DNA from: Rhizaria sp. SCN 62-66
Lineage: Eukaryota
Length of the DNA stretch: 61,529 bases
Direction of reading: 5' to 3'
NCBI GenBank assembly: GCA_001724265.1
Contig: MEDY01000152.1
Span: 1 to 61,529 of the forward strand
Shown here: positions 506-48,193 of the stretch, piece after piece
Numbering within the stretch: position 1 is the stretch's first letter
Layout of the letters: each line of letters begins with the position of its first letter
Notes under the pieces: generated by a model
Database searches by the model: none
What the model saw: the letters and a program-made list of their open reading frames with translations, nothing else
What the model was told of the DNA's origin: nothing
Position numbers and translations under genes: made by a program

Positions 506-3016
506 TCATTCATTGTCGTAGTCCTCATCCTCGTCACTTGGCGATTGTTCGCTATTGCTTCCGTCCATGGCCAATAAAGCTAGATTCTCTAAGCAGTCTG
601 CCAACCGTTGCAGCAGTCGGTTCACAGTCTGCTCCTGCTCATGCGCTGAGCTTTGCACACGCTCGCAATCCTTCCTGGTCACGTCTGCTTCTGTGCGCAG
701 CCTGTCCGCAAAAGCAGCGGCGCGTGCGGCTGCGCGCTCACAGTCACTCACTGCGTCCAGCTGACGATCACCTGTCGCAGAGTCACTCGTGTCGCGTTGA
801 TCACAGCTAATCTCACTGTCACTATCATTGCTGACACTGCCGCTGTCGCTGTCGGTGCATTTACTTGCAGCTTCTGAGTCGAGCGCACAAGGCGGTAACA
901 GTTGATTCAATGCAAGCAGTGCGTGCTTTGCTTGTCCGATCCCATGACGGCGGACTTCATCTTCAGCGTTCGCTACTGCAGTCACTGCGGTCAGCAACAA
1001 CGCTGCCCAGCCGCACAATGGACCTCGATGTTGTTGCTCTTGCTTTGTGTCAATATCAATTTCAGTTTCACCGGCGGCGGTTTCTGCGTCTCCAGGAGTT
1101 GCAGCCCACACTATTCGCTCTACAACAGCCACAGGGGCCGCAGCGGCAAGCACCCACGCGCGGCACCGTGAGCACACGACATTGCTGCTACAGTTCAACG
1201 TAGCACCACCGCCCAAAACAACACCGTTCGCAGCTGAGACAACTGCAACGACAGCACTCGCTATGGAGCCGAGCTCTTGTCGGCCGCCGCAGTGGAGCCA
1301 TGCTCCGGCGCAGACGGTGGGCGAGTCACGGCGCGACTTGCACTCGGCAGAACTTTTGTACCTTAACATAGGATTGTTGCAATCGTTGTCAGTGCATATG
1401 TCAAAACAGACCGGCTCTAACTGTGTTTCTAAGCTGCGGTTATCACCGTTGCCAGTTGCGAGGTGCAGGCCAGTCAGAGTGAGTGCGAGCGACACCGCAA
1501 GAACTGGCAAGATAGATCCTCCAATCAGCGACTCAAGCGCAGATGTGCTATTCATGTTGTTGTCAAGGTTTGCGTGTGAATGTTTGCAGAAAGACACGCC
1601 GCGCACAATAGCTTGCTTGACGGGCTCGAGCGATAACACTTGACGAGCACACAGCAGCACATCTGATGCACTCGATCCAGTCAATGTTTCACCTGATGAA
1701 GTCGTCAGTAGGGCGAGCGTTAAAGACACCAAGGGGGTAATAACACTCGAGTTCAGCGGGTGTAACCGTTGCACTGGCTGTGAGCAGTGCCGCGACGACT
1801 GTGTCGCAGTGGTGATTGTCATCGTGGCATGCACAACGCTATCAGTATACGCTGCTTTGCATGATTGCGGAGAAAGGGACAGTTGCAGAAGCGTAGACAC
1901 GTTTGTTGCAAGGGTCAGCGCTGCACCAACAGTGCCAGCAGTCGCGCCGTTCGACGTAGGTTCAGTGCTCTGGGTGTAAATGGTCGCTGTGTGCATCAAT
2001 AGCATTTCGCTCAAAGCAACACAGTGCCACAGCCAAGCCTCATTCACTGTCTCTAATTGGGACTCAGTTCCAGCAAGCAGGGCCCTTGTGGCTGTATGCA
2101 GTCCGTCCGCGCGGCTCGCCATAGTGAGGCCTAAACGACAGAGCGCAGGCGGGAGCAGGAGTGGGATCAACGGCGAAAACAATGTGAAGTTACACTAATT
2201 GACGGAGGTTGCGTTGTGTTTGGGGTGGCGACGACAGTTGCAGTTGCAGCTTGACATCAACATGTCGACAGCAATATCGTTCAATAGCGTCAGCGATTCG
2301 CGACTGTCGCTGATGTTGTTCCCAGTTCTCATCTCTATATGTGTCGCAGCAATGTTGGTTGCAACTTCAGTTGGAGTGATACGAAGAGTAGCAAGCAGCG
2401 CTGATGCAGCGGGATCGCGCAGCCGAGCCCAGAGCTGCGCCACAAAAACTATAGCATGCGGCGCATCATCATACCCGACCGCGCTATCGTTGTAGTCGTG
2501 ATCGTTGTTGCCCTTGTTGGAGTTCTTTGCGTGACTGCATTCGTGATGCAACTGTCGTGAGGTGAACGCGCTCAGTGAGCCTGCACGCTTGCATACCATT
2601 GCAGCAAGGCCCAGCGGCTCTACTAAAGAGTCTAAATACTCTTCTAGTGCGTAATGAGAAGGCGATTTCGAACATGATAGAGCTTTGTTGATTGTGAGCA
2701 GCGGCGGAAGCAATATGCCATCAGCCCATGCATCCGCAGCGTCACTTAGATTACACTGAACACAACTACTGTTCTCTTGTGCAGTAGGCAAAGTAACATC
2801 GCTGCTCGTGTTGTCATCAGAGCTAATTCCACGGGCACGCTTAGAGCTGGGCTATGGCAGCGCGTCATGAGGTACTGTGGCAGTCGTTGTGGGAGTTGAA
2901 GGTGGGTGGACTGAAGTGCGTGGACACACTTCTTCAATCACAGTGAGCGGCGTGTACAAACGTGGTATCGGTTTGTCAACGCAGTATTCAGATAGCCATG
3001 TGTACAAATTATCCAT
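506..3016 (-). CDS. Hypothetical protein, 836 aa, with two in-frame TAG codons; C-terminal coiled coil and acidic tail
   Basis: ATG at 3016 (MDNLYTWLSEY...) opens one frame through TAG 2854-2852 and TAG 2197-2195 into track ORFs 2195..2791 and 506..2182, ending at TGA 508-506. No AT-rich spacer or frame change at either TAG; the next upstream in-frame stop is TGA 3067-3065. No family recognised. Confidence 0.7.
2195..2197 (-). other. In-frame TAG read as sense (inferred Gln)
   Basis: Context GTC AAT TAG TGT AAC TTC ACA TTG; 12 nt later the 558-aa ORF continues in the same frame. Confidence 0.7.
2852..2854 (-). other. In-frame TAG read as sense (inferred Gln)
   Basis: Context CTG CCA TAG CCC AGC TCT AAG CGT (L-P-*-P-S-S-K-R); frame is open on both sides. 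Confidence 0.65.
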
Positions 3017-8537: not shown

Positions 8538-9165
8538 CTGAAAGTGAGCAAGTGAGCTTGAGCTCGGGTCGAGTGCGGAGCGCTAAGAAACCTACAGGAA
8601 GGTCTTAACCACAAGTATAGTAAAAATACACAAACCTCTTATGTAATCGCCCTATGAGTAGCTTTCAGAGTTGCTTTATGATCAATGACGGGGCGAAGAT
8701 AGAAATGCTCGAGGGGGTGAGTGGATACGATATCGCACGAGGCTAGATCAAGAGATAAACCTCAAATCCACGGTATTGAATTTAAATAATAGATATAAAT
8801 TGTGCGTATAATACCCAGGCACAAACTCAAATCTTATAGTGTCGTTCAGGCCACTCGGTATTCACATATAATTTCGCGTCGTCAGCAAGCCCCGAGTCGC
8901 TGGTTAGCGGCTGGAGCGGGGAGCAGCGACAAGGATAATCATACCACGACTTAAAGACAGCGGTTAATAACAAGACATCTTAAGAATATATCAAAGCATC
9001 AGTTGCTTTATTCGCGATGTGAAACATCTATACCTATACACAGACAATATAACAGTAAACAGTCATCTTTATCACAGGATCTATCTCTACGCGAGTCACA
9101 CTCGCTCTCCGCGGCGGAGCAGTCAGCTTAGGGCTTGGCCACTTCGATCAATCAAGCACACTTCT

Positions 9166-10743
9166 TTACTTGAGCGAGTGGCCCGCGCCCGACATCCCGG
9201 CCGCCTTGTTGGCCTCGGCGAGCGTCTCGCGCTTGACCAGCCGGCCCTCGCTGTCGCGGTAAAACACCCACTGACCGACCACCTGCTTTGTCAGCCCCGC
9301 AGTCGCGCCGCCCGCGCTGGAGCTGCTGCCGCCGCCGAGCGCGTTGCCGCTGCTGGCGGAGGCCGTAAGTGCGGAAACGGGCGTCGCGGCGCCGGTCCCG
9401 AGCGCGTAGCCCGTGCCCACGTGTCCCACATGTCCCGCGGAGCCCGTGCTCGCGTGGCTGGTGCTGCTGCTCGCGCTGGCAAGCCCGCCGGCCGAGCTGG
9501 GCGACGGCAGCACCAGCGCGGCCTGCTCCGCCGCGGCCGCCGCGGCGACGGTGCCCGCGACGGGCGTGTTGAGCCCCCAGGGCGAGGCAACCGTGGCCAC
9601 CGCGGGGGCGGGGCTCGCGGAGCCCGCGGCCAGACTGGAGCTGGGCGCGGCGGACCCGGCGGCGGCGCCCGTCTTGAGCGAGTGGCCCGCGCCCAGCTTG
9701 GCGAAGTAGCCCGCGCCGCCCGCATTGGCGGCGCCGCCGACCACTGGGGTGCCGCCGACCACGGGCGTGCCGTTGCCGTAGCCGCCGCCGCCGGCCGCCG
9801 CGGCCGCGGGGTTGAGCGAGAGCGCGCCGATGGACTGCGTGAAGGGCGACACGGGGGGCGTGGCGCGGCCGCCCGCGGCGGAGGCGGCGCCGGTCCCCAG
9901 CACGCTGCCATTGCTAGTGGGCGAGGCGAGGCTGCCGGGCGGCGCGGGGCCCTGCGGCAGCGGCGGCTTCTGTCCGAACGCGAACATGGGCGCTGCGGAG
10001 GGCTGCGAGGACGCAAACGTGGGCAGCCCGGCCGTGGAGACGGCGCCTGGCGCGGAGAAGGTGGTGCTAGAGCTGCCCGTATTGGTGCCCGGAGCGTGGG
10101 TGTAAGCCGCGGCGGCGGCGAGAGCGCGCGCGTTCTTCTCGGCGTCGAGCTGGGCCTTGCGCTTGGGGTAGTCCTTGGCCTCCTTAAAGTCGACGTTGAG
10201 GTCGGTCTCGATGATGAGCACCGCGTCGGCGGGCTCGAGCGCGACGACGTCGAGCTGGAAGGTTCGGTTGACGTGCGAGATGCTGATGGTAGAGCCCTTG
10301 TTCAGCACAGCGTAGCCGCGCAGCCCGCGCTCGAGCACGGCGCGCGGGTTCGTGAGCTCGTTAAACGTGTACGAGTGGGGCTGAAACTGCACAAATGTGC
10401 CCTTGGGAAGGTCGACATTGAGCAGGGAGACCGAGTCGCCCTCGTCGAGGCCCAGGTGGATCATCATCCAGTACGGGATGTAGCAGTGACCTTCTTCGGC
10501 AACGAACTCGAGCACGCCGCAGCAGACCTGCAGACCCGTGTTCGGGTTCGTCAGACGGAACATCATCGGGTACGCGATTTCGAGCTGGATCAGCGCCTCC
10601 AGGGTCGAGGACGGAAGCAAGATCTTGTCACCGCACTAGAGGTCCTCGCGGTCCTTGCAGCCGACGGAGAAAACGCGGAAAGCGGAGCGGTAGGGCCCGC
10701 GGGGAGCCTGCTGGCGAGCGCCGCCGCCAAAGAAGCTGAACAT
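9166..10743 (-). CDS. UFD1: Ubiquitin fusion degradation protein 1 (p97/Cdc48 cofactor), 525 aa, with one in-frame TAG
   Basis: ATG at 10743 gives MFSFFGGGARQQAPRGPYRSAFRVFSVGCKDREDL*CGDKILLPSSTLEAL..YPMMFRLTN..CGVLEFVAEEG.CYIPYWMM..LPKGTFVQFQP..TNPRAVLE..LRGYAVL..IIETDLNVDF, the UFD1 UT3 domain. Low-complexity tail carries SHP-like GxGxxL motifs. Ends in TAA. Confidence 0.95.
9169..9694. repeat. Perfect 22-nt direct repeat (9169-9190 and 9673-9694) encoding GAGHSLK twice in the UFD1 tail
   Basis: cttgagcgagtggcccgcgccc occurs at both positions. Confidence 0.85.
10636..10638 (-). other. In-frame TAG inside the conserved UFD1 N-domain
   Basis: GAC CGC GAG GAC CTC TAG TGC GGT GAC AAG ATC. It occupies the polar (usually E/N) position of the D-R/K-x-x-L/V-E-x-G-x-K-I motif, with UFD1-like sequence on both sides. 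Confidence 0.9.
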
Positions 10744-11293: not shown

Positions 11294-14200
11294 ATGCAAC
11301 CAGTGGGATCCCCGGTCGCTCCCGCGCCGGCCGCCGGGCAGCCCCACGCAGGGGCTGCGGCAGCCGCGGGGACTGCGACGACTCCTGCGACAGTCGGATC
11401 TGCCACTGTCTCCGCTGGTTCCGGCGCCAGCTCTGCTGCAACTGCATCGCAGCTTAGCGCAGCAACAGTGTCTGACATCTCGCATTTTGCCGTTGTATTT
11501 ACGTCGATTGCGAAAGACATGAAACAACAAGCCGCTTGCCTTAGCGCTGACGCTACCGCCAACGCCACCGCCAACACGAGCACGAGCACGAGCTCGCGCT
11601 CGAGCGCGACAAGCACTGACGGAGCCCGTTGCGACAGCGACAGCGATGCGGACAGCTGTGACATTACCACCGCCCCGCGCTACGCCCACGGTGCTCGCGG
11701 TGCCCTTGCCCGGGACGCCAGCGCCGCCGCCTCGGACGCTACTGCGTCTGTTGCCACTGCTTCCGGTGGTGGCGGCGACGGCGGTGGAGGTCGATGGTCC
11801 GTCCCTGCTTCCGCTGCAGCGACGCTGCAGGCGTTTCCGCGCTTTTTGTCGCTTGGCATGAGCACCGCAGACGCTGTAGCTGCCTTTGCCTTCGCCCCCG
11901 CATCATCCTCGAGCTCGAGCTCCAGCTCTAGTGCGAGCGCTGCCTCTGCGGCTGCGTCTGCGGCCGCTGCGACCGCGACTGTGATGGCTGCTGCCGCGGA
12001 CCTGTTCGATCTTGCTCTTCCAACGTCATCGGCCTCCACCGGTGATGAAACGACTTCCACCGCCGAACAACGTGCTCGCACAGATAGTGTCAGATCTCGC
12101 CTGAGTGGGAATGCCGCTCGGGCCACTTATGACTGGCTCGAGTGCACGTGTGCTCCCTCGCTGCCCCAGCCTCGCCACGGCCCTGGCCATTGTGGCGAGC
12201 TCGAATTGGAGAGCGCACTGTGCGCTGCAACGCCGTGCGCTGCGTGCCGGTCGCTGTATCTTGACGCTCAGTCCTACAGTGTGCCGTTGCCTCTCCCGTC
12301 ACTCGACCATCTCCCCTCTCAGTCCCAGGCGCAGTCACCGACTCGGTCGGAAACTGCGCTGTTCACTGCAGACGGCCTGCGCCACCTGCCGGTCAATCTG
12401 CCACTCCCTCTGCACCCCGCCCACGGCAACCTCAGCGCACAGTCGCAGTCTCGCCCGGCCCACTCGATTGACCCCGCGAGCTACTACGCCACTAGCGGCT
12501 TGACTTTGAGCTGGGATCCGGCGGTCACGGGAGCTGTGGCCACACTGTTCCTTTCGCTCGCACTTCCCACGTGCACGACAGCATCTGCCGCATTGCCACA
12601 AAGTGCTGCACCTTCGTCAGGAACTGACGCTCGCGGTAACGTGGCGATCGATTGGTCGAATTCTTTGCAGCAGCTCTGCGCACGCGACTTTGCTGGCAGC
12701 CTCATGTCCGCAGCGCGTAACATAACTACCACGCATGGCAGCCCTTCTGATTTAACTGCTGATAGGAGCGAGATTAACGCGGAAAACAGTAGTTTCGTCA
12801 CCAGTACTCTTGCATCTGCAGTCGCCGCGCGTCGCGGTTTAATCTCGATGCTCGCACACCCCTTGTGTCCGGCAACTGTGCGCACCGCCGCAGTCGGCGA
12901 TTTCTGCGCTTTGCTGGCAGCTGCTGCAACAACCGCGGCCGCTGCTGCAGCAGAAGCAACTACTCCCGTCACTGCGACGGAGCCTGTGACTGCGTTTGTT
13001 TCGGTTCCTTTGGCTCCGCGCCTTGCTAATGTCATCACGACGACGATGCCGACCGTTGCACTTACAGCCATGCCACGCGTTACTACACAAAGCAACGATG
13101 GCAGTGCAAGCGTGAGTGCCGAGAGCGGATCTTTCGCGTCTCTCCTCGACAACTTGCCCCCGCTGACGTCGACAGCACACTCGGTCTCAACTCCGCACAG
13201 CGTGCACAGCCGGATGCAGCAACAATAGCAAAGTCGCGCAATGTCTCTTTGCACCCGCGCGCTGTCGTCGCGGCTTAGCTTCCGCAGTCAAGCCGCTATG
13301 CGGTGTATAGAGGCGCTGTGGGTCGTAGCCATTGTCACTGACCTGTTAAAGGCAGTGACGGTTGCACTTACACTTGACAGCTCAAGTATCAACACCAACA
13401 GCAACAAAGCTGGTCAATCTGCCGCAACGTCCTCTGCAGAGCTTGCCTTCGCCGCTGTATCAGCGTCCGCAGCAGCTTCTATCAAGTCCGCTGTTGTTGC
13501 TGCGTACAGCAATGCTGCAGTTACTCTTCACTCCTCGCATGCAGCAATTGCGCTGCATACCTTAAGTTGTAAGCTCATACATTCTCCCGCTATCGCGATT
13601 ACAGCAGGTGCGATGTCTGCAATGACTGCCTCGACTTCAGCTATTGCCGCCGCGATTGCGGCCGCCCCCGCGCGCGCCGTTGCAGCCTTTGCATCGCTCC
13701 CGCCCCCCATCTTGTCGGCTCCTGTCGCTGCGGCCGCGGCCGGTGGCGCAACCGCTGACGCCGGTACTGGAAGCAAGGAGTGGATGACGGCTGCTTTAGC
13801 TGTGGCTGAGGCAGTGCTGCTCTGGGGCGACAATGCAAGTGCTCAGAGTCACCATCATCTACAGCAACAGCAGGCGCCCACGGGCAGCAGCAGCGTTGCG
13901 CTCGCGAGCTTTGGCGCATCCAACGCCCCTCTCACAGTGACGTCGCTGACGGCCGCTAGTGGCGCGCATCAGACTCTCACAACCTCTGCGCTCACGGTAA
14001 TCGCGCCCACGGTTACGGCCCACTTGCGCCCGCTGTTGTTAGGCTTGCTCAACTGTGTCCGCACGACGTACTCCGAAGTCAAACCGGATTCTGAACAGCG
14101 CTGCGCCCATCTCTCTCCGACACTTGCACAGCAGATTGCACGGCTGTGTGCGTTGACGCTGGGTGCGCGGCCTTTGGCGACAGTGAATACAGCAACGAAC

Positions 14201-17200
14201 AACGATAGCGTGGGTAACGCTGGTTGCGCTGTAAGCCTACGGCCGCTGCCGTTACCGATCTCGCTTCGGGGGCTAGCCATTGTGCTGTATACAGAGCTCG
14301 CCAAGCTGCCCACAACCGAGACCGCGTATGCATTCACAAACCCTGTTCATAGTGATACTGCCAGCTCGAGCGCGAGTGCCCAGGCGCCTGTCCAGGCGAC
14401 TGTAAGCGCTACTAATGTGACTAATTTGAGCGATGCGGCTGTGATGGCGTGCTCGGTCTGCCCTCATCCGTTCATTTCACGTGCAGGCGCCTCTGTCTCT
14501 GCTGCTATTGCGTCCTATCTGCCCACGATTGTTGCGGCGGCACTCGCATTTGAGAACACGCTTCCGCAGAGCGTCTCTTCTGTTCGTGGTTCTCAAGCTG
14601 TAAGTGCGTCGCTGTTCCCACTGGTACGTTTTCTTGTGCTTACCATAATTGGTACTGGCGACGCAACTCATGGTCGGTCGCGCTCCGTTGCCGGCAACGA
14701 GTGCGGCGACTTTGAGCACATTGTGCTGAATGTCGACTCAGGACTGCTGACTCGGCAAGAGCGTGTGAACGTTGCCTTGGCTGTCGCAACAGCAACTGCC
14801 AGCGCTGTCGCTGCCGCTGGCCCTGCGCCAGGCACTGCTGCGGCATCTGGTATCGTTATGGACGGGGCTGATCCTGTTCTGTCGGCGCTGTCGCAGCACA
14901 CTGCACAGCTTCTGTTGTCAACAAACGCGCTCACCAGCGCGATTGTTCGTGGCCAGGATGATAATGTGAATACTCCGTGGTTTGCCCCTGCGAGCGCTAC
15001 ACTGCGCTATCTCGCTGTCTGGGCTGCCCAGCCCGCCCCGTATACACCTGCTCACACGCTCAGCAGCGGCACTAATGGCCAGAGCAGTCGGACGAGCTAC
15101 ACTCCTGCTGTGCAGACTTTGGTCAATTGCCAGTTTGCGCAACTCCGCGCCGAAGTATCCGTCGGAGTCCTGCGGCTGAACTTATGTTATCTTTTGTCCA
15201 CTCCGGCCACGGTCGCTGCGCTGTTACGGTTGCGGCACGCCATTCTGGGTCAGTGGGCTTGTCGCGCTCCGTCTCTTTCTGGGGAGGCCGCAGCGGCGGC
15301 AGAGGCGGCGATGACACTCGGTTTTGACGCCGCGGTAATCACATCTCCAACTGCTGGTAAGCCCATTGTTTCTGCTGGTGGTGTTTGTGCTAGTGTGTGC
15401 GCGCTGGCGTCGTCGCTGCTCGCTCTTCAGCAATGGTCGCGCGCGCTTATCGCCTCCTCTGCAGCCCTCTCGTCACAGAAACTTTACTCTTCAACGGCAA
15501 TCTCAACTGTTTCTATTCGTGGAGGCCTGTGCGATGCTCTGTCACGCTCACTTTTGTTGCGTCCGTTGCGCGCCGCGCTTGCCGCCGCAAGCGAGACCTG
15601 GGCTCTCGTGTCAGCGAGGATTGGCCGCGCCACCGCTGCAATGTCACCTGCCGCTGCAGACATTGTCGTCGTTTCGCTCCCAATGCCCGCTATGATTAGC
15701 AATCCTGATGCTCCGCCTGCGACCGCTGAATTGCCACAAAGCATGGAGGATGGAGGTGGCGGCGAAATCAGTGAGCATGCGACCGCCATGGATGGGCTGG
15801 GACACGTTCTGACACTCGCGCGCGGCAACTACAGCGCTGTGCTCGTGCATCACTACTCCCGTTGCCGCGCACGGAGTGCGAAGGCCAAGATCGCGGCAGC
15901 CAGCGCTCGCGCCAGTGCGCGGGCGCAGGCACAGGCCGCCGCCGACTCTCCTGTGTCGACTGACCTGGCCGCGCTGGGTGCCACAGCAGCAGCCGCGGTC
16001 ACTGCAGTGGCTGATGCGGATGAGGCTGTGCGCGCACTCGCCTTGCCACTGCTGCCGCCGTGCCCGGCGCTGACGACTGTACTCTCTCTGGCTCCGCGCG
16101 CGCCGCTGGGGCTGAACGTTGAGGCGCTTGCACCGTATCCGTTCCCTGCCTCGGTTGCACAGGCACATGCACAGAGCGCTGCAGGCGCATCTGTGAAAGG
16201 TGTGTCAGAGTCGAAGTACTTGGCCCAGTGTCAATGGAGTGTTGTGGCTTCATTCACTGCAGCTGCTGCTGTTGAGGTCTCTGCCACGGCAGCGGCTTTG
16301 CAAGCGAGTGCTTCATGCGCTTGTTCCAACAATTTTAGCACGTCTAGTATTGGCTTTGCTGCTGTTGACAGCGGGTGTTTATGCGCGTGTGACACACCTG
16401 ATGACGCCACTCAAGCTCGGGCGACTGATAGCTTGTTTGCAGCCGGTGCTGGCAATATGACTGTTGCGAATATTGTATCCCCAGCTGCTGCATCCCCTCT
16501 ACCGTCGACCATGTTCTTCAGGCTCTTTTCACAGTCAGTCGTTGCCACCGTTACCGCATTGTCTGTTTTGCCGTGGGCCTCCGTTGCAGCTCTCGACCCA
16601 TTGGCTGGTAATGCTCGTCAGCAAGTGTGCCCCGTCCCGATGGGGCTGTCGATTGCCGCCGCCCAACCTGTCTCATCTGCGCTCTCACGGTATTGTGCTA
16701 CGACGGGATTACTAGCTCTCGACAGCATCCTCGCTGAAAATTCCACAAGCACCGATGATGACAGTCGTGAGTTTCCTTCTGTGTGTGCGTGTAGTGAGTG
16801 TCAACAAGAGAACAACTACAATAACATGATTTGTCTGAGCATGAATACTGCCACCAGCACTCTGGGAATCACTGCTAAAGCCAAAGGTGACGCTGCGAGA
16901 TTTGTCTCGCCGATGTCACTCGGCAGTGAGCCTCCTGCTTGCGTGCTTTGGGACAAGAATACTGCCGCCGCGTGCTTAAACCTCACCATGTTGCTTCCGC
17001 CGACTCTTTTCCCTGACACCTCGACAAGTGTCCGCTCACGGTCGACGCAATCAAAGTGCTCCCAATCTCTTGCTCTGTCTGTGCTACGCGCTGCGCTTAC
17101 GTTCGGCGACTCTGCGCTTTCTCTCGCGGCCGCATCCTCAACTCTTAGTTGTTTTTTCGATGACATTAATGGCTCTGCGCTTGGCCGCGCCGCCCACCCG

Positions 17201-20200
17201 CCTCCCGCCGGCGCTGCCGCGTCCCGTGCTGGTGCCGTGTCCGCCACGACAGTCTACCTTGCCCTGTTGCCCTCGGCCAGTCGTGCACGCGCTCTCTCGT
17301 GGCTTGCCCCGTTGATTGCGGCAGTGTCAGGCGGACAGGCGCAGGCCGTAGCTCTCGCCAGGCCCGCGTCTTGCGCAGCAACGCGAAGCCATGATGAGAT
17401 TGCAGAATTGCCCAAGGACTTTGTCGGGACGATTACACGTCGGATTACTGATCGCTCTTCAATCGGTGTCTCGCGTAACATTGATCAACCTAACTATCTA
17501 TCGCGGATCTTACTCTGGTCCTCTGCCATTTCTGAGCCCGCAATGAGTCAACGCAGGCGCGAGGCAGCCGTGTTGCGCCGCGCAGCCGCTGTTGCTGTAC
17601 CGGCGCTGGCGAGCTTGAAAGCAGGGGCTGGCTTGGCGCTGTTGGCACCACCACACGTGATGATTCGTACAGGCGCTGGTGTCGGGGGCGTTCGCGCAAA
17701 TCAGCCCGACGATGGTGACGGCGGGAACACCACCTCAACTAGGCCTATCTCTGCCTCTGCTGCAGGCGCGATTAAAACGGGTGTTGTACGTGGGGACGCA
17801 TACGTGTGTTTCCCGTGCTACGTTGCAGTTGTTCCCGCTGGCGCACCTGCTCCGGGGCCTTTGGCTCACGTTCGGACGCTCACTTTATTCGACCCCTTTG
17901 CAGACACCGACACTGATTCAGGTTCTGACTCGGGTGAAGATACTGAGTTGGACTCGGCTGATGAGCCGCGCTCAGAGCATAAACACGGTCACGAGCACCA
18001 GCGAGGGACGCGAAATCGATCTAGTGGATGCAAAACGTCTGAAGACGTGCGTGGCGCTGGTGGGCTTGTCATCCGCTCGCAGTGTAACTACTGCATGTCG
18101 GCTCTTCCCCCTTCCAGGACGACACCTTTGGCTAGTACTGATGTGAACAAAAGCGCGCCGACAACAGCTTTTGAACTCTCACCACAGCTTCCGAGTGTGA
18201 CTTCGCTCATGACGCGTTTTGTGCACTCCAACATTATTAACCCCGGAGCAAGTGGTGCTGCGGACGGTGGCATCGATATGACAGACGATTCCAATGCCAA
18301 GAGTAGCGGTGTTAGCTCTGCTGTTACACAAGTCGCCGCTTCACCGTTTCCTCCCCTCGCTGCTGCGGGCGACGCGCTGACGCCCACTGCTGCTCCGCCC
18401 GTGAACGCGGGCGTGATGAGCCATGGGTGCAACCATTGTTGCTATCATACTCGCCCCTCCTCATACTCTCAAACATCCCGCCCTCGGCGCAATCGCCGTC
18501 ACAACCGCAGTCATATGACCTCTAGTGACAGCGACTCTGCCGCGACAGTGAAAACCGCACCTGCTGCATCTGCTGCCATGTATGCGCGCTCGTGGTCTGC
18601 TGCATTATCCTGTGCCTTTCCTGCAGCTGCAGGCTCAGGCGCACTCGCTGCTGCGGCGACTGTTGGCGCGCTGTTCCCAAACCTCAGGGCGGTGTCGCTG
18701 GATCTAAGCCGCCAACTGTTGTCGGCGCCGCGGCTTCGGAGGCTGCCACCATGGCCGCTTGCGCTGCCGCCACAGACTCCCACGCAAACGCAGTCGTATG
18801 ATCATCGGTCGCCAAAGATGTCCCAGTCTCCGTCTCAGCGCTCTGCCCCACAATCACAGTCGCAGGCGCACTCGCAGCAACAGAACACACAGTCGCAACC
18901 GAGTAGTACGCTTGTCGGTTCTGGTAAGGGCGCTGGAAGTGTGTTCGGCAAAGCGAACGTCTCAAACAACGCGCGTAAGAGCTCTAAAGCCTCAGCCAAT
19001 ACGAAGGCTGGTACAACTTCTGCGAAGGGTAATGACAAGAACAAGAACAAGGCTGACAGTGACAGTGATATTGAGTATGTTTCCTTGCTTACCGACAGTG
19101 AAACTGCGAGTGATAGCGAGACCAGCAGCGATGATGACGACGACAACGACTCAGCCGCTGCTACTTCTAAAGCTGCTTCTACAGCTGCGGCGGCTACTTC
19201 TGCTGCTGCTGCTTCTGCTGATTCCGAAGCTGAAGCCAAACGCGCCCGTGCTGAAAACAAGGTACAGCGGCAGCAAGAGCAGCGCACTGCCTGCAATGCA
19301 CGTCGGCTTCAGCGGCAACAGCAGCGTGCACGTGAGGCTACGTTCCGCCCCCAGGACCGGTCGAGCTCGCACGTGTCCTTCTCGTTCTTTGCCCCATTCC
19401 TCTTCTTGCTTGCCCCGCTGCCACCGCAGCCCCTCGCGGCCCACTTCTATTTGCTCTTTGCCAATTCTAATATCGACGATGTGTCAAGTAGCGTACGGGG
19501 AGTGAACTTGCCTGTTGTGCGCGAAAGGACTGTTGGGTGGCGTCTGTCACTGCGTCCGCTGCCTCTTGAGGCTGATACTGTCACTGTGGCGCACAGCCAC
19601 ACCGTGTCCGTGCCACAGACAGGCCCTAAGACGCCAACAGAAGAACCTGTTGTTGAACCACTTCGCTGTGAACGCCAAAGCGTTAGTAACGCGACCAATG
19701 AAAGTACGCGTGCTGTCGCGGCTCTTGCATTCACGCACACGCTCTCCCTCACGCATCCTATCGAGCAAACACTGCTTTTGAGCTACGATGGCAAGGCAGG
19801 CGGCGCGGATGCAACTGCTACGACTGCAAACGGAACGTCAGTTCGCGCGAAGGGAGCAGGCACAGATGTAATTGCTGCGGCCAACACTCTCGTGATGGCC
19901 CTCACAACCTACAATGAATCAAGCGCTTCACAAGCTCAAACCAGTTCGAGTCCTGCAAATTCAAGTTTGAATGTCGACTCGGTAGCTGTGAACCCTCTTT
20001 CACTCTGGGGCAGTTCTGCAATCGAGTCGCTAAAGTGGCTGCAAACTGCTGATCCTGCATCATCGCTGTGGGTGCTGTTGACACAAGCGCCGTCCCTGAA
20101 GCTAAACTGTTTTGATGCTTTAGGTAGTGTTGACGGGACCTCGAATGGTGGTATTCTTTCCCTCGGACAAGCGTTGCTCTCATCGCAGCCATCGACAAGC

Positions 20201-23200
20201 GATATTCGGAACACGACTTCAGTTGATGCTGCGTTTAGTGCAATCTGTGCAGCGATCATGGTCTCCTGCCTTGCCACCCTGACAACTCCTGATGGCAGCG
20301 ACTACAATGCTACACTTCCATTGCCGTTGACTCGGAGCGCCCGCGTTAGTGCTCCTGCGATCGCAGATGCCGCTGTGTCTGATGCTGTCATTACGCTGCA
20401 GCGCGCGTTCCGCGGTTTGCCGTTGTGGGCCACTCGCCTTAACTTCGAGCGTCTCTGCTCTTACACACTCATTCTGCCTGACACGAGCGCTCAGCTGACT
20501 GACTCAGTTACATCGGCAACAACTGTGTTGACATCGTCGGCTAATATTGCTTCCGCGAAAGTACCACCAGTGGTTTACGTGGCTTCATGGGGACCTACTG
20601 TTCCGCGCCCTCTTAACGTCACCGTTTCCGACCATCTAGCTAGTTCAGCTGTCTCTGCGCGTTTTGCCCTTGCTTCGCTGACAGCACCGTCGCTATCTCT
20701 ACTTCCACCTGCGCCATTGGGTGCGTTGACATCATTGTTCCCACTCTCTCCACCGCCAGTGCCATACAGTGTCGACGCCGCAGATGCACCCACGCGCGCT
20801 GATGCGAGTACGCACGGCCTGCGTGGTCTTCCTCCGCTGCGCTCACGGCTACCGCTGCATACTGTACTTGCCACGCGCTCTGATGCGCCTGCTTCAATTC
20901 CAAATTCTGCACAACGGCGGAGGAAGCCGCAACGTAAGCCGTTTGTACACAGTGAGCGGGAAAGCAAGAGCAGCCGTGTGGAGGATGACGACGATGACGA
21001 CTATGAAGACAAGGACTGGAATGCCAACAGGAGCCCTGATGAAGATGGTGACAGCGATGACGAGAACAAGACAGTCACCGTCGCTTTACCACCTCCTCAG
21101 TTTCTGATGTATGCGCCACCAACTAAGCTCGCGTTCCGCCGCAGCAGCAAAGGATACGCCAAGGGTTCAGTAATTCCGCTTGTGGCTGGCACTGTCTGTG
21201 GTGTATCGAAGTTCCATCATTCGGCTAAGCTTCCCGATGCGTGCTCACAGTCACCCATTATCTTCTCATCTTTCCCATCAAACTCTAGTGTGAGTGATGG
21301 CTGTGGCTATCCTCCCATTTCTGTCGCCGCTGCGCCTCCGACTCCTGTCCTCGGTCTTTTTCTTGTGTCCTTACTGACCGACGCACAACCCCTTGTACGC
21401 CACTCTGTTGCCGCGGCATTACCGACTTTGCTCACGGTTACTGCGCACAGTGGCGTTGACGTTGCTGTGTGCACCACTGCGCCCACAGACACATCCACTT
21501 CTTCTGTTGTGGACTCGACGGCGACGGCACATGTCGACCTCAGTGAGGAGCTGGCGCCGTACATTTCTCCGAACTCAACCCTCCCGGTTGTCGCGGCCAA
21601 CGCACCTCCGCTCGTGCCTGCACCGACCGTCCGCGCCACAGGTTACGTTGCGGGCCGCAGCCACCCCACTGCCCATCCTGCCAGTGGTCATCAAACTAAC
21701 GCCCAGTCGCACCAACAGCCTCATGCGCAAACACAAACGCAGCACACGCCAACCCACCCACAGGATCGCGGCAGTCCTATGGCTGACGGCGATAGCAGCA
21801 ACGAGTTGTTGTCGCAAGCGCAACACAAACCGATGATGCATCAACAAGCCTCGCACATGCACTCGCAGCTACCGTCACAGTCGCTGTCTCCGATGGAAAC
21901 ATCGAGCTCTCCTGCTTCGGCCAACACGACGCCAGTTAGTGCGGCTGCAGCGCCTGCTGATTCAGTCACAGGCGCAGTCGCCATGAGCAGTTCTAGCAGT
22001 AGATCAAGCTCCAGCTCCAGCTCGAGCAGTGCAGCGCATGGATTGAATCCTAGTGCTGGTGCCTCACTGTCGATGGCTAGTGAGCCTCGCGTGCCCGTGT
22101 CCGCCCCCGCAATGCCTGCGCCAGCGTTTTCGGCCGGTGGGCCGCTACTGATGCTCTTTGCGGGCGCCTTCGCAACGGTGCCCGACCCGGCACGTTGTTT
22201 ATGCGGGGCCGGTGTTCATAGTAACGCCACTCGGAGTCAATGTGCCTGCAGTGTTACGCCGCGCTGTGGTGTGCCCGAGGCGCTCTCCCGCCTCGCAGTC
22301 GCGCTAACGGCTCGGTTCGAGACGCTCCACGCGCGCGCCGCGAGGGTTGCGACGGTGACCAGCACGGCGCGGCGCGCTGCTGCAGCAGCTCTTGCGGCCG
22401 CTGCCCTAGGACCAGTCTCTGCGCCAATAGCAGCGCCGTCGGCGGCATCTAAGACCCCTGCGGCTACCGCGGCTGCTGGTGTGACAGCTGCGGCAGCCGC
22501 TCTTGTCGCCGCAGCTGCCGGCACACGCGCCGGCATTGGAGGCGCGCTTGCGTTGTTCTCAGGACACTCGGCCACATCAGCGTATAACGGTGCTTATAGA
22601 CTTAGCACCTCGCATGCTGCAGCAATAACACCCGTTAAAGGCGGACGATCTGCTAGTGCGACATTGCCTGGATTTGACAATGATAGTGCTGCTGTTCGAA
22701 CTGGAGGGTTGGCCGAGCCCACGGTCACTTCGCGTGCGCTGGCTGAGGCTGAAGGCAAGATGAGTCGCCTGCCCACGCGTTTCCGTGACAGCGTTGGGGT
22801 GAGTGACTGTGAGAGCGCATGGCTCCATGACAGTTTGGCGATGGTCCGCGCAAACGCTGACCTCATTGACAGTGATGACAATGAGCAGTGTGACCAAACA
22901 TCTTGCGCTGCGTGCAAGCCTAGCAGCAACCCCGCTGCTGACGCAGCTGCAGTTTCCGGCGTGGGTTCAGGCACTGGAGGCGCAGGATATGGAAGCAGCC
23001 CGTACGTGCCCTTCCCGCTCTACATTAGTGGACGCGCGCTCGCTGCGGTGATGAACAACACAAACACTCATGACCCCGCCTCCGCTGGCCAGCAACGAAA
23101 CGCGCCAGCAGTGAGTGTGAGCGCCTTGCTTGCCGCCACTGCGGTGCACTCGCTGCTCACGCTGCCTTTCCGTGCACCCCTGACACCGGGCCTCAGTGCA

Positions 23201-26200
23201 CGCTGGACGCTCGCACTACTACTCTCGCCACACCGCACGCCCACAGTGACACCCGCAGTCCTCTCCTCTCGCAATGCTGCTGCGAAGCGAGGTTCCATCG
23301 CGAACGCTCATGATCACGCGAGTTCTAGTTCTGCTGTGGACGGTCTGGACGGCAGCATGACGCAACAATGGTGCTACCGCCCCGCGCTTCCGCCTTCAGA
23401 GGCAGTGTCTGTGGCTGCTGCGGCTAGCGTGTCCGCAGTGTCCGCGTTTGTAATTCTCCCGTCGTCATTGCTTCAATTACAACACCAGCAGCAGCAACAG
23501 CAGGAGAGTCTGCCACGTGGACACTACCAGCAGCAACAACGGTGCGTTGCGGCTGCCATCGCGGGAGATTTCTCGCCCCTTGCGTTTCCCTTTCCGGCTC
23601 TGCCGCCACTGCCGTCTGCCCTCGCCACTACCATAGCAGTGCTCTACTCCTTGTCGGCACACCTTGCCACAGCCACTGCCGCCGCACCTGCGGCGCCTGG
23701 CGCGCCATCGATGCTCTTCTCCCCCTCGTCCGTCGCAGTGACTTACGCTGCTGCCACGGTCAACGCAGCCGTCGCCGCCGCCACGCCCGCGGCGACAGCG
23801 TTCCCCGCTCCCTGGGCCTTGCCAGACCAGCTGGTGCGTCCTCTCACAGCCGGCGCGACCACGGCGGCCGCCGCGACGGCGACCGCAGCCGTGAACGCAG
23901 CGGCCAGCGCCGCGAATGCCGCTGCAAACGACGGCTGTAATCGCAGCGGTGCGGTTAAAGGTGCCGGCACGGGCGTGCTGGGCGGCAATCTGGGTCCGAG
24001 CGGCGGCGCCAGCGTGCATGTGACTGCCACCGTGGGCGCACTTACAGCGCTGCACGCAGTCCTGGGGTACTTAGATCTCGACAATAGTGTCCCCAATGTG
24101 AACAACAATAACATTGGCGGAGGCGATGAGTTTCATGGCAATGCCGCGATTATGAAGCTAGCTCAGCTGTTCAGCATGACTGCAGAATCCGGGGCAGCCT
24201 CGCCCGCCGCTGCATCCACAACTGTCCCCGGCGCGACCGGGACTGCGCGCGCCGTGCCTCTGCCGCTGGCATCCGCGGCAGCTGTGCGCTCGTTGCTCGC
24301 GCCGAATGGCATGCTTGCGGTCGCACTTGCCCCACTAGCACCTTACGCTTCGCTGCAGGCAGTTCCAAGCACAAGCCCGAACAGCAAGAACATGGGTGTG
24401 AAGAGTTCGATCGCGTCACCCCTAGCTTTATCTGCTGCGCTTTCCGCTACTGCTGCGTCCACCCCCGCGACTGCCGCCATCTCCGCCAAGACTGCAAGCA
24501 TGGACGCCCGCACTGCTGGCTCGAAAGGTGGTGCCTCCAGTTCAGCTGCGGTTACCGCATCCGGAACGACTGTGGCTGCCTCGGCAGCGACATCGGTGAA
24601 CGCGCTTCAGTTGCGCTGGGCGCGTGTTGCTGCCGCTGTGGCCGCGCTGCCGCCTGCTCGCGCTCACGCTCTCCCGCTCTCCCTGCTGACTGCGCGCCCT
24701 GACTCGCCATCGTCCACCGACGGCCTAACTTCTCAGTCTCCTGCGGTTCGCGCGGCTGTGCTGTCGCTCGTGCTTTCTGCCGCTGCCGCCGAGCCTGACG
24801 CCGCGCTGGCTACAGTCTCTCATGCTGCGCCTTCTTTGGTGCCGTTGCAACCCCTCGTTGCACTAGCTGCGGTCTTCTCGCCGCTGCTGCCCCTTGGCAA
24901 CTGCGAATCGCTACCATCGGCCAGTGCCTCTTCGGGCGGTGTTTTCTCGACTGGTGGGGGATCGTTTGAGCCCCCTACGGCAGACGAAATTCGGCATTGT
25001 CTTCTCGCACTTGCGCATACTCAGGCTCAAACTCTTTCTCACGTTAATGCAAACGCAAGCATGACCGATGCGAATGTCGAGTCGAGGAATGACGTTGGCA
25101 TTTGGTCTGTGGCTCCGTTCTTGCCTGTATACATGCGTCCTGTTGCTTCCCCCGTGGCTTCGACTTCTGCCTCTAGCGCGGCTACTGGTAACCATGATAA
25201 CGATGGAGCCGTCGGTGACCTCGACTCTGGGTTTCATCGCAGTGGTCTCAGTGTTGGCGTTGTCGGTGGCGTCGCGTGGCTTTCCCCTGCCCCGTGGCCG
25301 CCGCATCTTAACGCACTGACTTTTGCGCAAGCACAAGCACGGATTGCCGCCGCTGCCGCTGCTGCTGCCGCTGCTGCCAAGCTTAGCGGCAACCGAGTAC
25401 GCGTGCCATCAGACCAGGCAATTCTAAACGCTGCTGCGGCCACAGTATGCGCACGCAACTGCGGCATTGGCGAGCGCCACTGCGAATGGATCATCGACGA
25501 CTTGAGGTCCAATCGCCTTGTTGGCGCCACATTGCCGTCAGATGTGGTGAGCACCGCGTTTAGTGCTGTCAAACCACGCAACAGCACAATTTCTGCTCAC
25601 GGTACCTCGTCCGGAGGCAGTGGCCGCGTGTGTGCGTATGCTCACAACGCCGGTTTTGGTACTGGTACTGTTGGCGGTTTGTGGGTTGTGGACACGAGTG
25701 CCGTAGAACCCACCGTGGTCTCGGGCAGCGGCAGCAACGTCAAAAGTGTGATGACAAAGCGCCGTATCAATTTCATGGTCAGTTGCTCAACCCAGGTTTC
25801 ACGCTCAGTGACTTTCAACGCGCGTATGTTTTTGCAAACCAAAGCGAATGCTGCCACTGACAATGATGCTGTAAGCGACAACGATCACGCTGACGACGAT
25901 GATGCCAATAATGATGGAAGCACAATCGGCCTTCTCGCTCTTCCTGTCGTGCCATCTTCGCGTGGCGCCTCGAACACCTTGCAGTTGTCCTTTCCCTCAC
26001 TTTCTTCCTTTGCGGCTACCAAGTTGGTATCGCTTACGTTGCAACGCGGGCTCCGCCGTCACCCGTCTCATCACACCTGTGCGAAGCGGACTTCTGGTTT
26101 CATCAGCAGTTGTCGTGTCATAGCCGCGCCGGCGTGTCTGCCATTACCCCGAGCCCGCTTGACTTCACCCCCGGCCCCTGAGCCACCGCTACCACTGCAT

Positions 26201-29200
26201 CCTTACGCCAGCTCCAGTAGCTTCGTTGACACATGCGTGGGATACTCTGACTTTTCCGCTGTCCCTGCGCTCGCAGCCGCACTGCGTCTTACCGCGGCTT
26301 CCGCCGCAGCCACTGTCGCCTCATCTGCTGGTGTCGCCCTATCACACCTGCTGCTTGCTGCTCACGGTCTCCTGCTTTACCCTGTTGTGGCATACATTGC
26401 GACAGCTGCCCCTACGCTGACTGTGCCTGCTGTGTTGACGGTCGCCTCTCACCCCCACTACGCCGGCGGTCACACGTCCGAAGACGGTTCATCTTCCGAC
26501 AGCCCCGACCCCCCACAGCTACCACTTGTGTTGTTCGCCCCGGCTGCGCACGCAACGATGGGTCTATCTGCGGAGTCGAACCTTGCCCGTCGACGCGCGC
26601 TACCACTAATCCGCTCACTGGCCCGGCGTTGGCTCGGCTGGGAGCCTGTCGCGCTGCTACGGCACTTGCTGCCCCGTGCACTGCCTGCCGCCGTGTTGGA
26701 CTCTGCGGGCACTGCGCGCGAAGAAGAAGATGAGGCAACCGAATACCACAAGGTGTTGCACACCAACACTGGGCAATCTATCGCGGCCGCCGCTTCTGCT
26801 GCCGTTCTATCTTCACCTTCGGCATCAGCTTCAGCTGCGGCATCGGCTAGTTCCAGTGTTGGCGCTGACACTCGCGCGCGCGCGCAAGAGATCATCGCAA
26901 CCGCCACCGTGACTGAGCCCGCGAGTGTGCGGCAGCTCACTGCGGCAGCGCTGGCGTGTGGTGGTGTCGCACTGTCGGCTTCGGCTGTGGTGCGCGCAAG
27001 CAACTGCAACGGACGCGTGTTGGGCGAGGCCGCTGCAGGCGCATGGGTTGAAGCGCGGCGCAACATGCGTGTTGCAATGTCTGAGCCTCTGCTTACTGTT
27101 GCGCCAACCATGGATGCGCTGAAAAACACTGTTAACATGCAGAATGATGACACTAACTTTGTAGGGCACGACAACAAGACGGACTCTGACAGTGATAATG
27201 AGAGTGGGAGCGATTATGATTGGAGAGACGACAGTGATGATGAAGATATCGTCAATGGGGCAGATTTTTCCTCAGCCGCAGCATCTGTCTCAACCGAAAT
27301 TAACTCAACACATAGTCGAGACCGTGGTGTTGCTGTTGAAGGCTCGTCTCTGGGCCGTTTCCTCATGCGTCACTACTACCACGATCATAACTCGTACCTT
27401 GGACTTCCACAGTCGCTCCCAGCGCATCCTGCATCGAAATTACGTCGGGACTCGCGCCAATCTGGCAGCCGCAACGTCTCCGTTGTGCGCGCGTTTCATC
27501 ATCCCTGCTTGGCATTAATTGATGTACTGTTCACGCACGGTTGTTTATACCGTTCCCAACACCTCACACGGTCAGTGTTATCACGCGCCTCCCCGTATCT
27601 CTTGGTGCCACTGCTCCTATCAACGCTTGCTTGGGGCACGAAGCTCCGTGCGCTGCGTGTGCTTATGCGCGAGATTGCACCTGTCGACGTTGCGCGGAGG
27701 GTTGACATGCTATTGGCGCCCACGCTTTATAACCAGTCGACGGACTCAGAAGCAAACAAGTCTGCTTCTGAAAGCACCAGTTCTAGTGATGACGCTGGGA
27801 TTCGGAGGAAGATTGGTTCTGGTCGTGGGGGCGACTTCATTGTTACCTCAATGACAGCGATGGTTGTTACTGCCGCTGCTAACGCTGTTGCTTTGCAGAA
27901 CTCTTCTGTCAGTGGTGCCAAACACCGCGTGCGAGCTCCGACTGCACACAAACTCGTTCTTATCTCTGACTCGCAGCCCGCAATCAGTGACTTGCTCATC
28001 ACTGCCCGCCATCGCTACGTACACCTAGAGCTCATCGCCGCACTCGGCCGTCCCGCTCTCGCGCGCACGGCGGCGCAGGCGCTGGCGTTGCTAACGAGCC
28101 AGGAGGACGCGCACGACGCTGAGGCTGCTGCTGCGGATGCTGATGTGTGCGTACAGGCTGCACTCTGGTCTCAACTCAGTAGCCACGTTAATGCGACAAA
28201 TGACAAGAAAAACCATCTTGATCGCACGAGCAACAAAGACTCAACTGGTCTCAATGAAAATCCAGTTCCGTGCTCTTTTGCAACCCCGTTGACGACATCG
28301 ACCTGGTACCCCAACAATGCACGCACGCGTGAGTCACTGACTGCGCGCGCCATGCTCAGCCAGAGCCCCCTGACCGCGTTTTCTGCGCCGGCTTGGGACG
28401 CGCTCTCGCTCGCACGCCTTGACTTTGTTCCGCCAATGCTGCCTGAGCCAGACATATTCTTGTGGGCTGTTGACAAGGTCGACAAGCTGCTCACAAGTGC
28501 GCCGCGCGCGGCCGTGGCCAACATCGCTGCAACCACCGCTGCTGTCCGTGCTGCCACGGCGGCAAGCTCTGGGACTGTGGCAGCTGTGAAAGCTACTGCG
28601 GCTGACGATGTCACGGAGACTGGTTTAGTGCTGACTGCATTCGATGTCGACGAGAACAAGGCAAGTGCGATTGAGTCGTGGCTCCAACTCAGTCAAGCTG
28701 CATTTTCAGGCCCGCTACAGCTACCCGTGACAGGTGTCCTTACACTGGCCCCCAGCACCATGTGCGCCGCGATGGACAAGAGTCGTGGAGTGCGCGCACA
28801 GTTGACGACCGAGAGTATGAGGGCTGCGGAACTCACATCTGTGATTGGTCTTGGGGTTGTGGCTGCTGCAACGCAACTGCCATCCTGCCTCTCAATCACT
28901 CATTCTCTTCCAAATGGTAGTATCAACGATCCAAATGTGATTGCTAGCATTGGGGCCGGAGCTGCGCATTCTACGAGTTCAAGTGCGACTTTGAACTCGA
29001 GTGCGAGTGGTGGCCGCAGCAGTACTCAGCCTGGTTCGCGGCCTTTGTTTATCTCACCCGCCCTGTGTGTTTTAGATCAAGCTACTGCTGCCGCCGCTGC
29101 GTCCGTCTACGCTGCCGCCCTTCCCGCGCTTGCCACTGCGACAACAGCGACAGCAATGATGGGTACGCCCGTGACACAAAGTGCGATGCGTGAAAAGGGC

Positions 29201-47200: not shown

Positions 47201-48193
47201 GCGTGGCTCAACGCCGTCCGTCTTTTCACCACCACGGCCGCAGCGTGGTCGGTCCTTGGCGGCATTGTTGGCCTTGGTGATCGTCACACCGAGAACATCC
47301 TCATCGACACGAGCTCTGGTCAGGTCGTGCATGTCGACTTCGACGTCGTGTTCCTCAAGGGTGAGAGCCTCAAGGTGCCTGAAGTCGTTCCTTTCCGTCT
47401 CACGCCCAACATGATCGACACGATGGGAATCCTCGGTGTCGGTCTGCCTACAGTCACACGCGAAGACAGGCTCACGCCGACCATCACGCTTCCCGCTGCC
47501 GCAGGCGCCACTGCGGTCGCGCTGGCGGCCGACGCCGCTGCAGCGGCCTCACGTCCTGCCCCTGCCTCTGCGTTCTGGGAAGACGTGACGCGCATTCTAG
47601 GCGTTAAATCCGCCGCTATAACCGCACCTAACGCTGCAGCTACCTCGCCTCCCAACAGTAGCAACAGCAGTGGGGGAATGCGAACTGGCACAGCCGGACC
47701 GAATGTCAACTCAACAACAGCCGCTGTCGCCGCCGTCGCCGCCACCGCGGCCGCGCCCGCTGCCCATGCACGCGGCGTGACAGGCTGGGGCAATGGGTCC
47801 CCGCTACCGGCTTTGGTGCCTGGCGCCGGGTGGGGCGTGCGCATCGACTCAGTCGGCGGGCGCGAGCGCGGCCCCTTCGTAAGGTCGTGCGAGCGCGTGC
47901 TGACTGCGATTCGCGTTCACGACCGTGCTCTGATGACGGCATTCCACACGCTGATCTACGACCCGCTGGTTGACTGGGGCATTTCGGGCGGTGAGCGCAC
48001 GGCGGGTGGCGCCGGTGCAGACGGTCAGCATCTGCAAGATGTTTTACGAGACTTAGAGCTGAGGATTCGCGGTGTGCTGCGCCGCGGCGCGCCAGCGCTG
48101 TCGGTGACTGGCCACGTGCAGCAGTGGATTCAGGAGGCCACGGATCACTATAGGCTTGGTGTGATGTACATCGGGTGGATGGCGTGGATCTAA
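11294..48193 (+). CDS. ATR: Giant ATR/Mec1/Rad3-family PIKK kinase; single 36.9-kb reading frame, 12,299 aa, with two in-frame TAGs
   Basis: Track ORFs 11294..13228, 13241..38905 and 38933..48193 share one frame and are separated only by TAG plus 4 or 9 sense codons. ATR-type motifs: FWRAFTLEEQQLLQPLLAATY, EEWACRWVYRL, DHRLARFLAPLI (before TAG 38903); LPRSVLSAAALR..ALWH, DLEVEGDWREA, EGLWRLGQWD, ALPRVLTLWFD (FAT); PKRLTVIGSDG..LCK..DMRKDQRLM, LRTYAV, EWV, GLGDRHTENIL, VHVDF, VPEVVPFRLTPNM (kinase); LSVTGHVQQWIQEATD..MYIGWMAWI-TAA (FATC). The exact start and inclusion of the first 644 aa are less certain than the C-terminal identity. Confidence 0.88.
13226..13228 (+). other. In-frame TAG within a Gln run (inferred Gln)
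   Basis: ATG CAG CAA CAA TAG CAA AGT = M-Q-Q-Q-*-Q-S. Confidence 0.85.
38903..38905 (+). other. In-frame TAG between ATR-homologous blocks (inferred Gln)
   Basis: GCG TCA TAG TCT ACT (A-S-*-S-T). Colinear ATR similarity lies both upstream (~38030-38525) and downstream (~40400 onward). Confidence 0.88.

Follow-up and report, generated by a model that had tools for sequence, protein, structure and literature searches.

A UAG codon inside a conserved UFD1 gene and the possibility of a UAG-sense nuclear code in a candidate rhizarian

The UFD1 gene described here carries an in-frame TAG at codon 36. The triplet is real and unspliced, and it lies within an otherwise conserved gene, at a column where the nearest relative has Glu. 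Across the window (the whole 61,529-nt stretch of DNA that was analysed), TAG is the only stop triplet found inside genes, and it ends none of the 11 gene models. It is very probable that UAG is read as an amino acid in this organism, if leaky decoding is counted, and probable that it is a sense codon for some residue, with UAA and UGA still serving as stops. Its assignment to glutamate specifically is tentative and has a little less than an even chance. Somewhat more tentative again is the fuller proposal of a rhizarian code at an early stage, undescribed in the literature searched, in which UAG is Glu and UAA and UGA are both stops.

Results

Organization of the UFD1 gene

The gene lies on the minus strand, on which the first-pass annotation was silent; the plus strand has CTA at window positions 10636-10638, so that the minus-strand triplet is TAG. 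The placement of a UAG at codon 36 within the UFD1 fold, as that annotation had it, is confirmed: the frame runs from the ATG at 10743 through the TAG at 10638-10636 to the TAA at 9168-9166, and a Pfam domain spans the TAG. The elements of the gene are as follows.

9166..10743, minus strand: UFD1 coding sequence; 525 codons, intronless, GC3 0.90, TAA end
10741..10743, minus strand: start ATG; 25/35 N-terminal residues the same as in the relative P0178
10636..10638, minus strand: in-frame TAG as codon 36; the nearest relative has Glu; in the loop that separates strands 19-26 and 40-44
10405..10689, minus strand: Pfam UFD1_N1, residues 19-113, across the TAG, E 6e-30
10180..10404, minus strand: Pfam UFD1_N2, residues 114-188, E 2e-26
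10564..10566, minus strand: first ATG past the TAG (codon 60), 24 codons beyond it
9166..9168, minus strand: terminal TAA; the C-terminus aligns with that of P0178

The gene is identified by its Pfam matches, UFD1_N1 and then UFD1_N2 in the expected order, whose positions were shifted by 20 residues translated ahead of the Met. Around the codon the minus-strand frame reads ...FRVFSVGCKDREDL-[TAG]-CGDKILLPSS... The top PDB matches are UFD1 chains (E 5e-47), in which the Glu of DRSDVEKGGK lies opposite the TAG, and a fold predicted from a 44-sequence alignment (mean pLDDT 88) places position 36 in a loop. If UAG terminated, the product would be 35 aa long, as had been noted at first pass. The accompanying claim, that a downstream restart would delete core strands, is borne out by the predicted structure: initiation at codon 60, the next ATG, would cost two strands (19-26 and 40-44) and a helix (45-53).

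The low-complexity tail of the protein (9166-9700, minus strand) contains two GAGHSLK-type motifs in common with P0178; these resemble the FxGxGxxL consensus of the SHP box. Their retention supports the idea that selection acts downstream of the TAG.

Against the nearest relative (P0002/P0178) the domain is 83% identical with no indel, and the relative has Glu at position 36. Identity is 13/14 just before the TAG, 20/23 just after it and 141/164 over residues 37-200, and the C-terminal tail is also conserved. GC3 is 0.86 before the TAG and 0.91 after it. Third positions make up 29 of 40 listed UFD1 differences to relatives' contigs; the excess indicates that the two lineages taken as a pair are constrained, and does not single out this branch. 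No near-identical UFD1 paralogue was found among 56 protein matches, which were of 115-368 aa only, and the organism's own UFD1 protein was absent from the same search over the same lengths. Scans of metagenome, viral and prokaryote contigs returned no UFD1 relative.

The TAG in independent sequence data

Parts of window 9000-11000 are contained in 18 of 20 listed runs, belonging to 11 studies and coming, where labelled, from bioreactor, wastewater, sludge or fuel cell. Four runs (X4, X6, X7 and X8), from studies other than the possible source, were compared in detail. Record 7 of X4 spans 10307-10819 (513 nt) with 0 other letters and 0 gaps, TAG included. Record 13 of X6 spans 10478-11554 with 2 other letters, one of them at 10501; the second presumably lies near the contig end, outside the TAG, as no row that is listed has better support than it would need to be left off. 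The contigs of X7 and X8 do not cover the UFD1 TAG, and the small shares of the window in these two runs say nothing about habitat or strain. The same TAG allele is present across runs of other studies and years, and the TAG is neither an assembly error nor an intron. Over window 10100-10703, X6 and X8 also contain contigs of organisms related to this one, with identities of about 87-90%, which may help to date the code change; a relative's contig in X6 (record 12, with 43 other letters) covers codon 36.

X4 is on record as an RNA-Seq cDNA library and bears the analysis label 'RNA? (probably DNA)'. Its long exact pieces fall on UFD1 only, ending at 10819, 76 nt above the ATG, with none on 10828-13400; X6, unlike X4, covers the 10828-13400 spacer and ATR frame. 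The X4 pattern is a hint, not proof, of a transcript that keeps the UAG. Two observations had been named at first pass as contrary to a sense codon, namely a cDNA lacking the UAG and a second, intact UFD1 copy with the present locus untranscribed. The probable-RNA contig of X4 retains the UAG ungapped, and X4 lists no differences that would mark a copy at an identity of at least 82%; both results lean towards the first-pass reading and are not conclusive.

Stop triplets and other TAG-bearing frames in the window

The other genes of the window, and the remaining in-frame TAGs, are listed below.

506..3016, minus strand: 836-codon ORF; no Pfam match, two internal TAGs, TGA end
2852..2854, minus strand: TAG at codon 55 of the 836-codon ORF
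2195..2197, minus strand: TAG at codon 274 of the same ORF
3204-8537, minus strand: COG3-like gene; 1,777 codons, rich in low-complexity inserts; sub-threshold Pfam COG3_N match (E 2e-5)
11294..48193, plus strand: ATR-type frame; 12,299 codons without TAA or TGA, two TAGs; divergent from UFD1
13226..13228, plus strand: TAG at codon 645 of the ATR frame; in a Gln run, CAG CAA CAA TAG CAA
38903..38905, plus strand: TAG at ATR-frame codon 9204; amid Ser/Ala-rich sequence
50603-53043, minus strand: ITFG1-like gene; two GT-AG introns
56222-57894, plus strand: RFC5-like gene; two GT-AG introns
59020-59790, plus strand: SHIPPO-repeat gene

The census covered 11 gene models (two partial) with 18,142 sense codons. 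Inside them TAG occurs 5 times and TAA and TGA 0 times; at their ends TAA occurs 6 times, TGA 5 times and TAG 0 times, counts that are partly circular because TAG was read through when the models were made. Under random nonsense changes the probability that all five internal triplets are TAG is 0.036-0.047, and that of no TAG among 11 ends by chance is 0.01-0.10. The ten 35-codon blocks beside the five TAGs have coding scores of -0.03 to 0.53, compared with a non-coding median of -0.84 and a 95th percentile of -0.09 (reference blocks scored under a model trained on the ATR frame); both flanks of each of the five TAGs score as coding.

TAG is the rarest codon, at about 1% of Glu or Gln codons, and in the ATR frame it is observed 2 times against 88 expected from base composition, about 40-fold below; the UAG-only codes described in print are unlike this. 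Given the deep silent-site split from the sister organism (59/113 four-fold sites), a codon freely interchangeable with its synonyms should have become more frequent; our own arithmetic gives roughly 17 from 348 GAG at 5%. UAG is so rare (5 of 18,142 codons) that the change would be recent, or the codon costly or inefficiently decoded. AGA (11) and ATA (23) are likewise very rare among the approximately 18,000 codons, perhaps reflecting missing or scarce tRNAs. No tRNA gene and no Rfam match were found in the window, whose repeats are Ala/Gln codon runs only. The hexamers that follow the five TAGs (TGCGGT, CAAAGT, TCTACT, CCCAGC and TGTAAC) have no common motif, and none of the five sites has unusual downstream structure (z -1.4 to +1.3); the shared 3' motif and the stimulatory structure of programmed site-specific readthrough are both lacking.

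The ATR-type frame ends in an ATR-type kinase and a FATC domain. It has no evident intron and is about 4.6 times the length of human ATR (2,644 aa), enlarged by Ala/Ser-rich insertions even within the kinase domain. UFD1 and the ATR frame are divergent, with 550 nt between their ATGs (window 10744-11293), probably a shared promoter region. An ATG lies 5 codons past the TAG at 13226, so this TAG, at codon 645, could be a true stop. Among the X6 pieces listed none bridges 13226, record 16 stopping at 13219. The search for relatives of the region around 13226 returned only the window's own pieces, and no homology to ATR was detected for the pieces of the frame upstream of 38903. The same 8-mer, GTGAGTGC, stands in frame 117 and 78 nt upstream of the two ATR TAGs (window 13112-13228 and 38828-38905, plus strand), against a background of 2-4% per codon; it could be due to chance (Val-Ser-Ala), or could mark GC-rich introns that preserve the frame and do not resemble the four real ones. 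The real introns, those of the ITFG1-like and RFC5-like genes, are 119-207 nt long and have T/C-rich 3' ends.

The best 8000 candidates for the 836-codon ORF included no relatives other than the window's own pieces, and around three of the four TAGs outside UFD1 no relatives were found. SHIPPO repeats belong to a family linked to flagella, and the SHIPPO-repeat gene suggests that the organism is a flagellate.

The amino acid inserted at UAG

As the first-pass annotation had judged, codon 36 of UFD1 is the best single test site in the window: of the 5 internal TAGs it alone falls in a conserved domain that can be aligned. Its description of the column as usually Glu or Asn also agrees with the alignment. 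Among 56 homologues, 26 have Glu, 15 Asn and 5 Asp, one each has Lys, Ser and Val, 7 have a gap, and none has Gln or Leu. The tree-based site posterior, computed on 49 of 57 rows (8 were dropped for gaps or low cover), is 0.91-0.94 for E, 0.02-0.06 for D, 0.010-0.012 for Q, 0.004-0.009 for K and up to 0.0006 for L. UAG as Leu, Tyr or Trp was rejected on this column; Lys and Ser are alive but weaker.

The column had also been expected to discriminate Gln from Glu or Leu. This stands for Leu, which is strongly excluded; Glu and Gln are told apart only moderately, since the loop tolerates E, N, D, K and S, and GAG>TAG is a single mutation under any meaning of UAG. For the latter reason the right comparison between Glu and Gln is one of the chance of fixation. 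A rough three-site model (the UFD1, poly-Gln and Ser/Ala sites), in which the selection weights and the precursor codons at both ATR sites were assumed, gave likelihood ratios E:Q of 3.2-13.6 and L:Q of 0.02-0.04. With an assumed prior of 0.5 for Gln and 0.12 for Glu, the posterior is 0.42-0.74 for E and 0.23-0.54 for Q.

The strongest competitor is a code in which UAG is Gln genome-wide, with UAA and UGA as stops as in Iotanema spirale, and the UFD1 codon is a tolerated Glu-to-Gln change in a loop. Position 36 is indeed a variable polar loop residue, and UAG as Gln is the commonest UAG-only outcome in the published accounts drawn on here (I. spirale, Hartmannula, Trochilia). The TAG at 13226 is one transition from CAG in its run of Gln codons; among QQ?Q contexts in the window the variable position is Q in 20/27 and E in 1, so that the poly-Gln setting fits Gln better. 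However, CAG>TAG in an unconstrained Gln run would be expected under a Glu code too, and Gln is found in 0/49 aligned homologues at the UFD1 column, where its posterior is some two orders of magnitude below unity (0.010-0.012, as above) and that of Glu exceeds 0.9; the E:Q likelihood ratio is 3-14. Gln is on this balance rather unlikely, though it is the alternative to be taken most seriously. The number of conserved UAG columns is one (Glu 0.91-0.94), and the single poly-Gln context favours the opposite answer. Overall, Glu is ahead, Gln is still in contention and Leu is all but eliminated; a residue other than Glu or Gln is scarcely credible. For a peptide test of position 36 it matters that deamidation of Gln yields the mass of Glu (+0.984 Da).

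Other readings of the TAGs

A UAG of weak or dual function, poorly recognized by eRF1 and subject to near-cognate readthrough, would allow a few internal UAGs to be tolerated and a few UAG ends to exist; we regard it as unlikely but as a genuine competitor. The extreme rarity of internal TAG would suit such a codon, as would precursors that look mixed (GAG, CAG and possibly TCG) and the CAA-UAG-CAA context at 13226 with its nearby ATG, a context that is leaky in yeast and TMV. Against this, the five sites have neither a common hexamer nor unusual downstream structure, TAG stands at 0/11 ends, and leakiness of the usual degree at codon 36 would presumably forfeit most of a housekeeping protein.

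Under the standard code, the TAG would be a nonsense mutation that has recently disabled this copy of UFD1, another copy existing elsewhere, and the other TAGs would be gene ends or lesions. No census statistic is more than modest when taken singly, the P values being about 0.04 and at most 0.10, and a distant relative (L004) appears to end 3/7 ORFs at TAG. This reading is nonetheless quite improbable: the 525 codons of UFD1 contain no other lesion and have kept their codon bias and tail, the same allele recurs in the independent runs, X4 has no listed differences that would mark a similar second copy and none of the 56 matches is near-identical, and five TAG-only events would be required in three neighbouring frames.

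That the TAGs never reach the ribosome, whether they are misassembled, edited in the RNA or the last bases of short in-frame introns, is more improbable still. GT-AG introns do occur in this organism (4, in RFC5 and ITFG1), both ATR TAGs have the in-frame GT-type motif 117 and 78 nt upstream, and minor editing would be invisible since contigs drop rare variants. But UFD1 aligns with P0178 free of indels, X4 has the site with neither gap nor change, and the proportion of T in the last 40 nt is 0.38-0.62 for true introns (GC 0.36-0.44) and 0.10-0.20 at the five TAG sites; intron escape appears conceivable for the ATR TAGs and absent for UFD1.

Lineage of the organism

In a quick RFC5 tree (73 rows) the organism shares a group of 33 rows with Lotharella, Bigelowiella and Lapot (SH-aLRT 98); in a second tree (48 rows) the SH-aLRT is 89.5, with Lapot joined at 24.9. 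In these trees it sits on a long branch with metagenome sequences. This one-gene evidence would weakly suggest that the organism belongs to Rhizaria; Sainouroidea, within it, is no more than a guess. Rosculus vilicus, whose GC content is 37.7% (PMC10770858), was rejected as the organism.

An RFC5 scan returned 80 loci, of which one (L001) is identical to window 57058-58690. Another (L002) represents a sister organism, with 85% amino acid identity, differences at 59/113 four-fold sites and no TAG in the compared codons. These loci, forward-strand matches only, contained no UFD1 and no TAG at a conserved column, and the stops printed in them are in intron or gap regions. The more distant L004 (64% RFC5 identity) has 7 long ORFs, 3 of which apparently end at TAG (4146-5978, 13034-15856 and 16339-17961). 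In these 3 the first TAG lies 400-900 codons past the ATG, and in two of them it is at most 10 codons from the next stop. TAG probably still terminates in the L004 branch, which would have the standard code.

Discussion

The reading preferred here, UAG as Glu, can be set out as a sequence of steps. The host would be a microbial eukaryote of high GC content, probably a rhizarian on a long branch, and its nuclear code would read UAG as sense. UAG would first have dropped out of use as a terminator; eRF1 may have little affinity for it, and it may be decoded by a tRNA whose CUA anticodon is a single change away from the CUC of tRNA-Glu. GAG>TAG at UFD1 codon 36 would then have been a silent change, and the other four TAGs tolerated changes in low-complexity, fast-evolving sequence. 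The stage would be an early one, with UAG gone from gene ends and making up about 1% of Glu codons, the sister species still having Glu and a more distant relative still terminating at TAG.

In the sources drawn on here, nuclear codes in which UAG alone has turned sense are rare, with Leu, Gln and Ser as known meanings. If true, UAG as Glu with UAA as a stop would be a new code table, and, provided that the lineage is right, either Glu or Gln would mean that the code has changed a second time, independently, within Rhizaria. The literature searched, which included few subscription papers, contained neither UAG as Glu with UAA as stop nor a second rhizarian code change. The low frequency of UAG, together with relatives that apparently differ in stop usage, would offer a rare chance to test the onset of a reassignment, where the alternatives are a stop that is first lost and then captured or an ambiguous intermediate. 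Standard gene calling already truncates these proteins: protein collections contain a 644-aa fragment that stops immediately ahead of the TAG at 13226 and a 538-aa fragment of the 836-codon ORF.

Comparison with known UAG codes

The rhizarian exLh (Sainouroidea) is described as reading UAG as Leu, with UAA and UGA as stops; UAG is frequent there (384 in 71 genes) and the organism is insect-associated, in the part of the report used (PMC5304391). Like exLh, the present organism has internal UAG and, in the 11 gene models, ends genes only with UAA or UGA, and it may belong to the same supergroup. Unlike exLh, Leu is nearly excluded at the UFD1 column, there are only 5 UAGs in 11 models, and the runs are from bioreactor and wastewater. 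A code of the exLh type was rejected, Leu occurring at the column in 0/49 aligned homologues with a posterior of up to 0.0006.

UAG is given as Gln, with UAA and UGA as stops, in Iotanema spirale, where it makes up about 8% of Gln codons (PMC5304391, in the portion consulted), and in the ciliates Hartmannula sinica and Trochilia petrani; the same passages on phyllopharyngean ciliates report UAG-only codes with Leu or Gln, and mention Ser for Scotinosphaera (PMC11687900). As in Iotanema, Hartmannula and Trochilia, UAG alone would be lost as a stop here; the lineage is, however, unrelated, UAG stands at about 1% rather than the about 8% of I. spirale, and the UFD1 column favours Glu.

In the sections of the sources drawn on, UAG as Glu is known only where UAA is also reassigned, in Oligohymenophorea sp. 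PL0344, peritrichs and Blastocrithidia (PMC10553269, PMC5304391, PMC12153298). In peritrich ciliates and Blastocrithidia UAR is Glu, and in Blastocrithidia UGA is Trp as well (same sources, same sections). UAG as Glu is proposed here as in these organisms, but neither TAA nor TGA is found inside genes. Codes of the PL0344, peritrich or Blastocrithidia type were rejected, as TAA ends 6/11 genes and is never internal. In PL0344, as far as the consulted text goes, UAG is Glu, UAA is Lys and UGA is the only stop, and UAG is decoded by tRNA(CUA) genes closest to tRNA-Glu (PMC10553269). The present organism differs in its use of UAA as a terminator, in its 120-210-nt introns and in a position in the RFC5 trees that is not ciliate-like; it would resemble PL0344 in the reading of UAG as Glu by a tRNA(CUA) derived from tRNA-Glu.
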